From positions 3,596,001-3,660,000 of the forward strand of contig OX597821.1 in assembly GCA_951406725.2 (NCBI GenBank): 64,000 bases of DNA, read 5' to 3'. How positions within the stretch are numbered: the stretch's first letter is position 1; each line of letters begins with the position of its first letter. The notes beneath the pieces were generated by a model. The model was not told where the DNA came from and searched no databases. It saw only the letters and a program-made list of their open reading frames with translations. Below, in pieces: positions 30,240 through 35,398 of the stretch. Made by a program: the position numbers and the translations under genes. The stretch comes from Octopus vulgaris. Its lineage: Eukaryota.

Positions 30240-31450
30240 TGACATCTAAATCAATCCCCCAAATCATTGATGCTTGAAGGAGAGACAAAAAGGAGAAATT
30301 CTTTTCAGTTCCACATTACTCCTCCTTCTCCCCACCCAAACACACCTACAGTGTCCCTTGAAATTGATAATATTATTTTATGTTAACATGGTGGACAGGT
30401 CAGTTTTAGCTTCCCTACTATTATAATGTAAACCTTTTTGAACTCATAATATTCTGTGCATGTATACCAATATTCCACTGAACTTTTTAATAATTCCTTC
30501 TGGAAATTATCTTGAGAATGTATAATATATTTGTTGTAATCTTTTGTGCCCAATATTTCAATGAACTTGTTAAACTTTTTTTATGTTCTTAACATGCTCT
30601 TGTCTCCAAAGAATGTATATATATGTTTTGTAGTACTCTGTGTCAACCGATATTCTGTGGGTGTTTGAATATACAGATACAATACCAATATCCCACTGAA
30701 CTTTTTAATAATTCCTTCTGGAATCTATCGTTAACATGTTCTTGAGAATGATTATTTATGCTGTAATCTTCTGTGCCCAATATTTTAAGGAACTTGTGAA
30801 ACTTTTTTATGTCCTTAACATGTCCTTGTTACCAAAGACTGTATATATGTAATGTATCATTTTGTAACAACCAATAATTAACGCAACCAAACATGTTACT
30901 TTTGACAATCTTTTTCCAAAGAGTGAAACCGGTAAAGTAAATAAATATCTTTTAAAATTGCATTTCCAAACCTTCTTTCGTAAACAATTCCACTCGTGCG
31001 GTACCCCACAACTCCACTTTGTTATATATAAACATCACATGAGTCCCGAAAATGCCACCTAAGACACAACAAGCAGACATTTAATGAACCAAAATATACT
31101 AAGAAAATTACAAGAAATCTCCTCGAAACTTTCAACCCTAATCAACAAAGTCCAACAATCGCACTTATACCTAAATGGACTCCTGGATGCTAAAACAGCC
31201 AATCAAACCCCTGACATCATCCCAACACTACAAAATCTAATCAAATCTATAGAGACAACAATACTCCCAAAGCAGGAAGAAACTAAAGACTGCATCTCAG
31301 TTTAAAACACTTACAAACACCTGGATTAAAAATCTCAAAGCACGCAAATTTGCTTTCTGGAACTTCATAAAAAATAATAACAAAGCAGACATTTATGAAA
31401 AGTCGCTCAACTCCACCCCTATCATTCTACCCAGAAAACTGCAAATAATA
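30240..31450 (+). mobile_element. Probable Penelope-like fragment: ~215 bp internal tandem repeat, hammerhead-like motif (30896-30940), start of an ORF
   Basis: 30465-30626 is similar to 30683-30850. Motif TTACTT-TTGACAA-tcttt..aaaga-gt-GAA-ACCGGT-A-AAGTAA. Downstream broken ORF MNQNILRKLQ... / NTWIKNLKARKFAFWNFIKNNNKADIYEKSLNSTPIILPRKLQI. Confidence 0.5.
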
Positions 31451-31451
31451 T

Positions 31452-31554
31452 TTTGCCGAACCGCTAAGTTACAGGGACGTAAACACCAGCATCGGTTGTC
31501 AAGCGATGTTGCGGGGACAAACACAGACACACAAACGTATACACACACACGCGC

Positions 31555-31648
<94 letters not shown>

Positions 31649-31790
31649 GCGACGGACATCTTTCAGTTTCCGTCTACCAAATCCACTCACAAGGCTTTGG
31701 TCAGCCAGAGGCTATAGTAAAATACATTTGCCCAAGGTATCACGCAGTGGGACTGAACTCGGAACCATGTGGCTCGTAAGGAAGCTACTT
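31452..31790 (-). mobile_element. SINE family A, body (its head is displaced to 35362-35398 by nested insertions)
   Basis: Matches the family A reverse complement up to GGAACCATGTGGCTCGTAAGGAAGCTACTT, then breaks. Confidence 0.9.
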
Positions 31791-33764
31791 TATTTCATAA
31801 AATTTGTCATCATAGACAGTACAAAGAGTGTGTAGCTTTGCGGGCTGGACAAACACATTAATGAATGGAAATGAAATAGAATGAATAAATGAGAGACGAA
31901 ACCCAACACCCGCCGATTGGAGTTTGCTCGAAAACTTATTTTCTTTTTTAAAAAATCAATATGAGGTTTCAAACCTCTTACAAGAAGGAGGCAGTATAAC
32001 CTCTTACTTAACATGTGTTTTTGGGTTTTTTTAAACACACAATTGAGGTTATAAACCACTACAAATAATACAATAAGATGAGGTTTCAAACCCTATAACG
32101 AGGGTCTTTCACCTCCTACTCTTCGATATATCCATCGATATATTCATCATTATCTTCAATGCCGCTTGAGTTCCTGTATCCCACCATTTCCCATGCCTCA
32201 TTCATGTAGGACATGTAAGTCGTGTAAGGGCCACCCGGCCATATGCGACACTCCTCCCCAAATCCTTTAAGCCTTTCCCACAAGGGAAACCTTATGACCT
32301 CCACAGCTATCTGCGGAGGCCATTCGGGATCCCGTGTGAAGGGCATATCTACTGTCTCTTTATGTTCTTCTACTATGTTTTCCACCTCCCCGCCCTTATA
32401 GAAAAAGATAATTAATTGATCATCTTTAAAGGTGGGGCTGGTTTATTCCACCGTGGGTGGCACAACTTCGGGACATGCAGACGGCACATCATCTCCCCGC
32501 TGAGACGACCCGTTCTTTTTCCTTCTTTTTTTCTTTTCTTCCTGACTTCGGGAGAGTGGAGCTTAGGTTCCTTTTTAATCCTTTTTGAGTTGAGGAGGCT
32601 GAAGCGTCCTCGACCACTTCCACCTCTCCCTTTGACCGGGTAGGGGAGGTGGAATCTAGTGACTGTTCCAGGACCTTACCATGGTCCTTGGGGCAGTTCC
32701 TTTTAATGTGGCACGAGTGACACTTGGGGGGACGTCCCTCAAGTATCACCGGATACCTGAGGCCAGCCATTTTCAAGAAATCTGGAAAAACCAGATCTGT
32801 TGCGGCCGATGGGGTCCACAGGGTCAAAATCGCTTTTGATCCTTCCCAATCGACCGCCGGCAATACCCTTACATTTAAGAGCCTGTGCCCGCCATCCCCC
32901 AGTCTCCATCGGATGGTATCTTCAATCCAATCCGCTTCGGTGTCTGGTGGTAACCTACATACCCAGGCTCGTATTAATTTTATCCCACAATATGACGGAA
33001 GGAACAGCATTTCCTTGCCTTCTAAAGGCTGACTCGCAAACTGGCGAGCCTTTTCCCCGTTGTCAAACAGCAACCATACGGTTGCATGCTTGACACCACG
33101 AGATATATATTTTAAAGAGGATAAATATTCTTTAAGTTCATTTTTTATGATTTGTTTTCGGAAGACGGTGATGGAATTAAAAACTTTAGAGTAAGTTCTA
33201 AGTACCATCGTCTTCTCCTCCATATCTTTTAACCACTGCTTAAGCGGGTTGATTTCCCACTCTACGACAGAGTTTTTATTTTTAAGTTCCTTCTCTGCCA
33301 TGTCAAAAATCAGTTCAGAAGTAGTTCAAAAGAGAGTCTGCAAAAAAATTAAACCGAATAAAAAAATAAAACAAAATAAAAGAGTAGAGGGGGAAACTGA
33401 AATTAAAGTAATGAAAAGAATGAAACAAAATTTAGAAAGAAAGAAAAATAGAAGGGAAAAGTAAACGAAAAACCTCACAAGTAGCACAGACAGGGGATCC
33501 TTTGTATAATACTCCAAAAAGGTAATCCAAATGGCTTTTTCTTATTTTTCTGGCGAGATACGCCCACTAGAATTTACAAGAAGAATTTTCAAGCAAAAAT
33601 TCTCAATTCACCTTAACAGTGACGAGAACCCAGTATTTTGCTCGCTATAGCGAGCCATAATTTACAATTTTTTTTTTTGTACTCTTTTATCTATTCACGG
33701 AGCCAAAACTCACATCTTCTCACTGTAACAGTCCAGACCAACTAGAGTTGCATTCTGGGTAACC
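31791..33764 (-). mobile_element. ORF1-only (non-autonomous) Tx1/L1-like retroelement, family 1
   Basis: 5' UTR, gag-like ORF, and 3' end ...TTTATGAAATAA joined to the SINE target. Flanked by GTAAG(G/C)AAGCTACTT repeats. No RT or endonuclease motifs seen. Confidence 0.7.
32489..33301 (-). CDS. ORF1/gag-like nucleic-acid-binding protein with a partly deleted CCHC knuckle (270 aa)
   Basis: ORF track. GRPPKCHSC-HIKRNCP followed by a basic low-complexity tail. Alignable with the paralogue at 34835-34190. Confidence 0.65.
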   Translation of the reverse strand: MAEKELKNKNSVVEWEINPLKQWLKDMEEKTMVLRTYSKVFNSITVFRKQIIKNELKEYLSSLKYISRGVKHATVWLLFDNGEKARQFASQPLEGKEMLFLPSYCGIKLIRAWVCRLPPDTEADWIEDTIRWRLGDGGHRLLNVRVLPAVDWEGSKAILTLWTPSAATDLVFPDFLKMAGLRYPVILEGRPPKCHSCHIKRNCPKDHGKVLEQSLDSTSPTRSKGEVEVVEDASASSTQKGLKRNLSSTLPKSGRKEKKKEKERVVSAGR

Positions 33765-33783
33765 GTAAGTAAGCAAGCTACTT

Positions 33784-33973
33784 TATTTCATAAAATTTGT
33801 CATCATAGACAGTACAAAGATTGTGTAGCTTTGAGAGCTGGACAAACACATTAATGAATGAAAATGAAATGAAATGAATAAATGAGAGACGAAACCCAAC
33901 ACCCGCCGATCGGATTGTTCTCGAAAATATATTTTCTTTTTTTCAAAATCAATATGAGGTTTCAAAACTCTTA
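33784..33973 (-). mobile_element. 5'-truncated second copy of the family-1 3' end
   Basis: Close match to 31791-31980. Preceded by GTAAGCAAGCTACTT at 33769-33783. Confidence 0.85.
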
Positions 33974-35360
33974 GAATTGTTGTAAATATATGTGCTGCCC
34001 TTGTGGCAAATTAAATTAAATAAAGTAGCTTGTAAGATGTTATAGTCCCACTTGCGGCTACGTCGGCGGCCCAGGAACATCCGCCGACCGTCCTATGCTC
34101 CACTTTTTCCTCTCTCTTTTTGATGCTGCGGGAGCAGGGGGCTGCGTCGACAGACGCAGGGGCGTCGTTACCCTCCTCCGCCGCCTATACATTCTTTGGT
34201 GAGCAACCATTGTTGATCACCTTTCTTTTTCTTTTCGTGGAGGAAGTTGCCTCCACGACTTCCACCGTCTCCCTCTCCAATGAATGGGCGGCGGACATTT
34301 CCTCTTTTTCATGCTGCAGGGCCTTACCACGGCCCTTGGTACAGTTCTTACTGATATGGCCAGGCTCCAGGCACAGGTGACATTTGGGGGGAGGGGCGTC
34401 CCTTAAGTATCACCGGGTACCTGTACCCGGCAATTTTTAGGAAGTCTGGGAATGTCATATCTCCCACGGCCACCGGGGTCCACAGGGTCAAAGTTGACCG
34501 CATACTCAGGCACTTCTTATCTTCCTTCCACAATAAGTGGAGAGGAACAAAATTTCATCTCCCTCAGGGGGCTCGTTAGCAATTCTGCTAACTTCCTCGG
34601 GTGTACCAAAGAGCACACACACCGTTGCAAATTTGGTCCCCCGTGAAATAAATTTTATAGTTGGCAGGTAGTCTGCCAAACCTCTCTCTATTACGCTCTT
34701 GTCGAAGAGGGCGATGGCACCACACGGCCTAGAATAGGTTCGTAGTACCACCGTCCTCTTCTCAAGATTTTTAATCCACTGTTTGGGAGGGATAACATCC
34801 CACTCCAAGGCAGTGGCTTCATTCTTCCTTGCCATGTGTAAAAAGTTCAAACAAAGTTCACATTAGATTTAAAAATGAAGAAAGATACAAAAAAGAAAGA
34901 AGACACAACAAAAGGGAAGAAAAAATAAAATAACAGTTCAATAAAGTTTTTGTTCCAAACCAAATGATAGACATGAAGAAGAGGTCAAATGATAACAAAG
35001 AAAACAATTTTCGGCCGAAAGGTACTCCTTTCCACAGAAATTTTCAAAAAACAATTTCTCACAGTTATGTGAGAGAACACACACGTCTCCACCGCAAGGC
35101 AGACAAAAAGCTCCGAATCCAGTAAGGACTCTTTGCTAGTACAAAAAGATAAACTTACAAGCAACAAATCCTACTGGACTCAAGGAGCAAAGAGTCTTAC
35201 CTTAAAGTATGGCGTCTTTTAATTTTCGCCAGCTGCACACCAGCGTTACTTCAACAGGTGCGTGAAGAACACTTTTTGTTATTTTTTCTTTTTAGGATGG
35301 AGCTCAAATTTCACGTCCTCACTGCTCACTTGCAAGAAGTCGACTAGACGCGCATGAGCG
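33974..35360 (-). mobile_element. ORF1-only Tx1/L1-like element, family 2, with locally inverted 3' tail
   Basis: ORF1 MARKNEATALEWDVIPPKQWIKNLEKRTVVLRTYS...FPDFLKIAGYRYPVILKGRP, frameshift, then PKCHLCLEPGHISKNC (intact CX2CX4HX4C). Tail plus target bases lie on the + strand at 33974-34032. Confidence 0.7.
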
Positions 35361-35361
35361 G

Positions 35362-35398
35362 AAGCAACTACTTACCACACAGCCACTCCTACGCCTAT
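35362..35398 (-). mobile_element. SINE family A 5' head (continuation of 31452-31790)
   Basis: AAGCAACTACTTACCACACAGCCACTCCTACGCCTA is the reverse complement of the head seen at 10242-10275. Confidence 0.9.

Follow-up and report, generated by a model that had tools for sequence, protein, structure and literature searches.

A SINE-targeting L1/Tx1-group retrotransposon system with ORF1-only passengers in Octopus vulgaris

The window analysed here is a stretch of 64,000 nucleotides of the Octopus vulgaris genome (GCA_951406725.2, contig OX597821.1, positions 3,596,001 to 3,660,000), in which a short interspersed element (SINE) is split into head and body by stacked elements that carry only the first open reading frame (ORF1) of a long interspersed element (LINE). 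What the window holds is an unremarkable, damaged stack of two elements from a genome-wide system that inserts at one base of this SINE, and the stack includes an informative chimera formed by tail capture. The SINE-targeting system, which belongs to the L1/Tx1 group and has ORF1-only passengers, is real. The two stacked elements, termed E1 and E3, very probably share their site with a full-length LINE. Their movement is likely to depend on the ORF2 protein of that LINE, acting in trans through target-primed reverse transcription (TPRT).

A shared 3′ tail motif, defined by a pattern without target bases, has 1,076 exact copies in the genome, and 903 of these (84%) continue directly into AAGWAG; the reversed pattern, used as a control, gave 0 matches. 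In the window AAGWAG occurs at 85 of 128,000 positions, and at 3 of 516 that follow AAATA, so its presence after the tails is far beyond chance. The flanks of genome-wide copies thus share a target and are not random, which bears out the SINE targeting proposed in an earlier, sequence-only reading of the window. E1-type tails do not fit the pattern, and 1,076 is consequently a lower bound on insertions. By eye, 26 of the first 30 tail-motif loci run straight into the target in sense. For E1 the best 40 candidates were scored in each search. Other than the window, 28 of 29 tails end at the target, 26 of them continuing into a SINE body, and the 5′ ends of other copies adjoin a SINE head in 28 of 29 cases and another tail in one. 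The end point is common to all families, namely the T/AAG step immediately 3′ of the SINE's A-box-like motif; intact 28-bp target sites of this SINE number 31,235, 33,013 and 5,605 in three variants (about 70,000). That so abundant a SINE serves as a safe harbour, as the sequence-only reading put forward, is conceivable. Kojima's rule sets target preference at >20% of flanks of one type, against the 84% found here and 30/30 for the autonomous family described below. Some listed contigs from runs of organisms B, C and D cross the tail-SINE joint, none with 31 letters on both sides; holders in RNA were looked for, and none was among the matches listed. One insert (L215/L292, G000:C1:68.30 Mb) sits in opposite orientation at the near-palindromic target, with the inverted body upstream and the inverted head downstream.

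A common flank might also be inherited, if head, insert and SINE body were copied together as one large hitch-hiking unit. Near-identical 5′ junctions among full-length copies of one family would fit such a composite, as would the excess of the young SINE variant among the hosts of young families (45 vs 23, against a genome background of 49%; p 0.003). The SINE bodies, however, are far more diverged than the inserts, which largely refutes copying as a unit and leaves it very improbable. Copies of the autonomous family A are 98.7% alike (median, query excluded) and the SINE bodies behind them 91.8%; for E1 the values are 95.3% and 87.8%. Intact SINEs of the matching variants are 93.7% alike (n=5, for family A) and 87.4% alike (n=16, for E1), and distances between family A elements are uncorrelated with those between their host SINEs (Mantel p 0.20, n=27). 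One family also sits in different SINE variants, and truncated copies of many lengths adjoin the head. Copies truncated at the 5′ end and abutting the SINE head were seen at L009, L231, L242, L248, L257, L264, L277, L298 and L299. In a set of 60 further motif loci, of which 59 were parsed and 37 yielded a 5′ junction, such copies are 51 to 753 bp long, with ~6-11 target bases shared beyond microhomology. Private variants are present in both target copies at L127, L277 and L283. Target-site duplication, a fixed 3′ end and variable 5′ truncation, the hallmarks of TPRT, are all present. Since the inserts are younger than their host SINEs and truncated copies abut the head, the shared flank reflects insertion rather than hitch-hiking.

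The 15-mer that recurs at the window's junctions had been taken for a plain target-site duplication, a view that has to be revised: about 9-10 bp are truly duplicated and the rest is carried by the element. Full-length copies of family A and of a second family, Y, have an A-variant 5′ junction in 18 of 18 T-variant hosts (11/11 for A, 7/7 for Y), the A loci with T-variant hosts having been fetched by the 3′ variant, blind to the 5′ end. In young full-length elements the 5′ junction always ends in TAAC, also in those hosts whose own 3′ copy carries T at position 13. Each family has its own leader, CTTCC in E3, CTTAC in E1 and CTAAC in A, Y and a further family, Z, and the order of the leaders parallels the ages of the SINE variants (76%, 87% and 94% pairwise). 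Because the leader is element-borne, each full-length insertion rebuilds a complete 15-bp site upstream. Imperfect 16-nt junctions might be caused by a mismatched host (11/11 versus 5/16, Fisher p 0.0003), but the trait clusters on the family A tree. A 15-bp duplication with an extra T as a private mark was rejected, because many loci carry this T.

The E1 ORF1 protein search returned 20 loci, among them L139, which holds a 5.44-kb element with endonuclease and reverse transcriptase (RT) that ends at the SINE target base. The endonuclease-RT partner with the same junction foreseen in the sequence-only reading was thereby found, as family A. The family has many copies, several with ORF2 frames of 1,133-1,150 aa in which Exo_endo_phos (PF03372, N-terminal), RVT_1 (PF00078) and zf-RVT (PF13966, C-terminal) score above the Pfam cut-off. 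All 14 copies picked for a long ORF2 lie at the target, as do 30 of 30 tail matches (query locus included). Four more diverged loci were also obtained: L158 ends at the old SINE variant, L159 is followed by a gap and then a SINE body, and two are without a 3′ end. Human L1 ORF2p is the nearest solved structure to the family A ORF2, at 229 bits over residues 6-870, compared with 70-74 bits for R2 proteins. The only informative name among the listed RT relatives is an Argonauta hians protein, 64% identical in RT; almost none of the listed homologue matches is named, and none is a named Tx1 reference. The ORF2 domains and the closeness to L1 support placing family A in the L1/Tx1 group, and the original Tx1 label would hold to the level of that group only. 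Tx1-clade ORF1 proteins have a CCHC knuckle and RRM-type domains. The family A ORF1 carries zf-CCHC, RRM was not detected in it by Pfam, and a ZCCHC3-like atlas match at 0.89 is a lead only. Individual copies show further rearrangement: L154 has an internal inversion, and L147 is 5′-truncated with no SINE head found beside it.

U2 and other multicopy RNA genes are among the known targets of Tx1-clade families (PMC4494074), and the SINE head is tRNA-like, so the SINE might be hit as a look-alike of a host tRNA or other small-RNA gene that is the real target. The suggested comparison with host tRNAs was run on 35 distinct sequences (30 loci, 7 isotype labels, no snRNA), and at most 9 of the 15 target bases match. 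Nearly all inspected insertions lie in SINE sequence and the leaders follow SINE subfamilies, which again points to the SINE itself; we regard an RNA-gene target as unlikely. The tRNA-likeness of the head is itself weak, consisting of A- and B-box-like motifs recognised by eye and of ARAGORN calls at a relaxed threshold only, with inconsistent isotypes, and the head has no tRNA match in Rfam. The tRNA-derived OR and OK SINE families, reportedly described by Ohshima and Okada in 1994, are candidates for the identity of the host SINE. A cluster of seven tRNA-like genes within 3 kb, five of them called Cys(GCA), was noted at L306 (G000:C12:25.27 Mb).

The passengers form a lineage of their own. 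At 19 of the 20 loci, fetched as 9-kb segments, the insert contains no endonuclease or RT frame, the exception being L139, where the autonomous element is separate and stacked. Clustering 53 long ORF1 frames at 84% identity gave 11 groups, and the genome therefore has at least 11 ORF1 clusters in place of the two families first supposed. Among cluster representatives dN/dS is 0.08-0.51 (one pair saturated), from which the ORF1-only families are evidently under purifying selection. The E1 and family A ORF1 proteins are 22% identical (E 9e-17). These families are an old, selected lineage resembling HAL1 (half-L1), not recent deletions of family A. Assignment to HAL1 proper was rejected: the ORF1 fits the local CCHC-type family and no L1 ORF1 Pfam family.

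Within the window, head and body of the split SINE both match intact SINE copies, and target sequence stands at the junctions (31776-31790, 33769-33783, 34023-34032 inverted, and 35360-35373). The features are as follows.

31452-31775, minus strand: SINE body with B-box-like GTTCAGTCC (31758-31750) and a (TA)n run, from the sequence.
31776-31790, minus strand: 3′ target copy, the SINE's own sequence, AAGTAGCTTCCTTAC, one mismatch.
31791-33768, minus strand: E1, an ORF1-only element of ~2 kb whose AATA end abuts the target; identity to each of three sisters is 94-95%.
31832-31838, minus strand: tail motif AAGCTAC of E1, the reverse complement of the target's GTAGCTT, from the sequence.
32489-33301, minus strand: E1 ORF1, 270 aa in the window copy against 321-333 aa in the three sisters.
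33769-33783, minus strand: middle junction, an exact target copy made up of duplicated target (33774-33783) and the E1 leader CTTAC (33769-33773).
33784-33976, minus strand: E1-type 3′ tail of the chimera (earlier the '190-bp sibling'), by match to the E1 tail and the chimera loci.
33973-34049, plus strand: 77-bp inverted block of the chimera, which takes in the old tail of E3, what remains of a target (10 nt) and the beginning of the E1-type tail that was captured; at six loci the block is in sense, and the inverted window copy is 91-94% identical to it.
34023-34032, within the 77-bp inverted block: target remnant, 10 nt, inverted.
34046-35359, minus strand: body of the E3-type ORF1-only element, ORF1 start at 34835, broken by an internal deletion and stops.
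35360-35373, minus strand: 5′ junction, duplicated target with a 1-bp deletion and the E3-family leader CTTCC, with which E3 copies elsewhere begin.
35374-35395, minus strand: SINE head, the 5′ part with A-box-like TGGCTGTGTGG (35385-35375), from the sequence and intact window SINEs.

The split of 33769-33783 into duplication and leader is drawn from young families and 5′-truncated copies. In the window copy of E1, ORF1 has suffered private losses, namely a 12-bp deletion in the CCHC knuckle at 32712 and ~76 bp gone near 32570, and a Pfam scan of the window ORF1s matched no family. Beside the truncated 3′ end of the SINE, on the plus strand at 30868-31450, are broken reading frames that probably belong to a piece of some other mobile element, although no Pfam family scored above cut-off; two diverged copies of one unit lie ~227 bp apart at 30526-30876.

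The sequence-only reading counted three insertions. Independent insertions in that number are ruled out by chimera matches elsewhere and by the inverted block: the window holds two. A single, rearranged chimera comprises the '190-bp sibling' together with the inverted tail and the 1.4-kb element. The whole of 33784-35359 aligns to one chimeric element found in sense at five other loci (L068, L075, L081, L082, L268). Old tail, target remnant and the last 217 bp of E1 are the normal 3′ end of one E3 subfamily, seen at L068, L073, L075, L078, L081, L082 and L016, of which L073, L075 and L078 resemble one duplicated region. Compared with the in-sense loci, the window chimera has a ~340 bp deletion adjoining the 77-bp inversion, and this inversion and the window's deletions are private damage. 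The statement that inserts end on the target in the SINE's sense accordingly stands for E1 and fails for the third tail (33974-34022), which is on the strand opposite to its own ORF1. L084 provides a second case of tail swapping: its E3 chimera retains the same old tail, but the final tail captured there is another one (72% to E1).

Local tandem duplication or misassembly of a single insertion could also produce repeated junctions such as those in the window. Six units of a seven-copy array on contig C1 do form one clade, and no listed contig bridges the inversion joint near 34046. Against this, similarity between the bodies of the two window elements is confined to two patches (68-71% identity), both elements have families of their own elsewhere, and stacked copies of A and Y are scattered on their trees. 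The other inversion joint, 33973/33974, is crossed without difference by one 123-nt contig of public run X3 (33902-34024) and therefore exists as DNA. Duplication or misassembly as the source of the window's junctions has next to no probability, and we keep to two insertions.

Stacks recur across the genome. On contig C1, 82 tail motifs fall in 69 sites, with arrays of 2, 2, 2, 4 and 8. In one array (L233-L235, G000:C1:223.689-223.709 Mb), a head is followed by seven Z elements, one family A element and the SINE body. The six Z units compared in this array belong to one clade (2-15 differences in 2 kb), which indicates that local duplication builds some long arrays; the three Z units of L236 are not one clade. 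At 5 of 6 loci on C1 the element immediately downstream of a Z copy is another retroelement of the stack, and L139 indicates that Z inserted upstream of A after A. Stacked copies of A and of Y are scattered on their trees (4 changes for 4 rows each), and stacks as co-mobilised dimers are thereby unsupported. Three full-length autonomous copies stand head to tail within one SINE at L155-L156 (G000:C9:2.664-2.681 Mb), and L015:1691-1791 has E1, the target, a ~90-bp truncated autonomous-type tail and then the SINE body.

A motif complementary to the target is carried in the tails. AGCT(A/T)C, its reverse complement, lies ~45 nt from the 3′ end, or 80 nt from it in family A. Of 196 junction rows found, 154 were scored, and in 151 of these the motif agrees with target position 4, although the agreement of one, L217, is spurious. 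The motif changes 5 times on a tree built from 41 tail rows, and a single origin is rejected (p 0.039), four long-branch rows (L077, L217, L243, L273) being left out of the tail-motif tests. None of 68 insertions of young families is in the old SINE variant, which makes up 8% of exact sites (p 0.003), a bias that could equally well reflect RNA pairing, drift of the endonuclease or accessibility of the sites. In the chimera an old tail without the motif region was replaced by an E1 tail that has it, which suggests that this region may be needed.

As a mechanism we propose that an apurinic/apyrimidinic-type endonuclease (APE) would nick the bottom strand at 5′-CTACTT/ACC, with priming starting on the shared 3′ hairpin tail. 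TT/A is an L1-like endonuclease step. The RNA would begin with a short leader resembling the target, whose annealing would help to join the second strand, and the ORF2 protein of a full-length relative would move the ORF1-only elements in trans by TPRT. Stacks may grow by re-insertion at rebuilt sites and by local duplication. An E3 element that has lost part of its tail now moves as a unit with the captured E1 tail, and such swaps could arise by read-through into the next stacked element. The RNA might also pair with the target's sequence, in the simplest case by forming a stem with a copy of the target reached by read-through, and would have to be updated as the SINE evolves. A stronger version, which we hold as possible but doubtful, is that the LINE RNA helps choose the DNA target: antisense tail and sense leader would pair with both strands of the nicked target, the guide bases having been rewritten in parallel in several lineages over three SINE subfamilies, and family Z having specialised on occupied sites.

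Several observations weigh against this account. Family A is younger than the window's elements, so that their actual helper was probably an older relative of it, L158 being one candidate, and the argument for trans-mobilisation is drawn from shared tail and junction. Exact AAGWAG is missing after 173 of the 1,076 motifs; most of those inspected are mutated targets, and L199, L251 and L016 end elsewhere. The DNA and protein searches gave best matches only, favouring well-kept copies. As to the RNA guide, the co-variation of tail and target is confounded with age, and well-supported branches supply only 2 independent pairs for it; pairing of the motif with the read-through target copy in predicted folds is not significant (z -0.84 to -1.95; E1 z -0.84). 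The tails of L199 and L251 end in (ATA)n or (TTA)n-like runs, not in a SINE, and may represent a related family that targets microsatellites.

Targeting of other transposons by Tx1 elements has already been published, and the SINE as target is newly added. According to PMC4494074, Xenopus Tx1 inserts in Tx1D and crocodilian Tx1-Mar in Mariner-N4_AMi, Tx1-8_Crp and Tx1-4_AMi target LTR elements, Tx1-9_AMi targets Harbinger, and other Tx1 families target piggyBac, U2 and microsatellites. These LINEs share with the octopus system APE and RT, a multicopy-repeat target, non-autonomous passengers at the same target (SINEU) and tandem insertion (PMC4494074). The octopus system differs in its SINE head target, hit at one base in 84% of exact tail motifs, its ORF1-coding passengers, its site-rebuilding leader and its target-complementary tail motif. 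HAL1 is likewise non-autonomous, with ORF1p only, beside an autonomous L1-group LINE (PMC5753468). Whereas HAL1 derives from mammalian L1, the octopus elements are site-specific, have a CCHC ORF1 just 22% identical to the present autonomous ORF1, comprise at least 11 ORF1 clusters and exchange tails through stacking. The U2-targeting LINEs Keno and Utopia also use a single site in a multicopy small-RNA-type sequence, and Utopia-1_NVit occasionally inserts in tandem, as in the octopus stacks (PMC4640811). Their target is a conserved host gene, whereas the octopus target is a selfish repeat whose site has changed through three subfamilies. R1 and R2 RNAs carry flanking rDNA-unit sequence in the same sense. 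Both there and in octopus, the form of the 5′ junction is set by RNA sequence that derives from the target; the antisense motif inside the octopus tails, by contrast, is without a citable counterpart. Co-transcription of R2 with its target is mentioned in PMC4494074. For O. vulgaris, 13 recently active L1-Tx1 families have been counted, with no target analysis in the main text of the report (PMC13282606), whose supplement and library may bear on novelty. A SINE-targeting LINE was not found in the literature searched, with Repbase, Dfam and subscription papers outside the search.

The octopus genome thus offers a three-level parasite system of SINE, LINE and ORF1-only passengers, with young ORF2-intact copies open to testing. 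The window chimera indicates that stacking is able to create new families through tail capture. Leaders, complementary tail motif and host subfamily change together and, because the target itself evolves, the genome preserves a history of a site-specific element keeping up with its shifting site. If the RNA does help to choose the site, target choice would be reprogrammable by changing RNA bases. How APE-type LINEs gain and shift specificity, by protein alone or by RNA too, becomes testable in this system, and bears on retrotransposon-based gene insertion.

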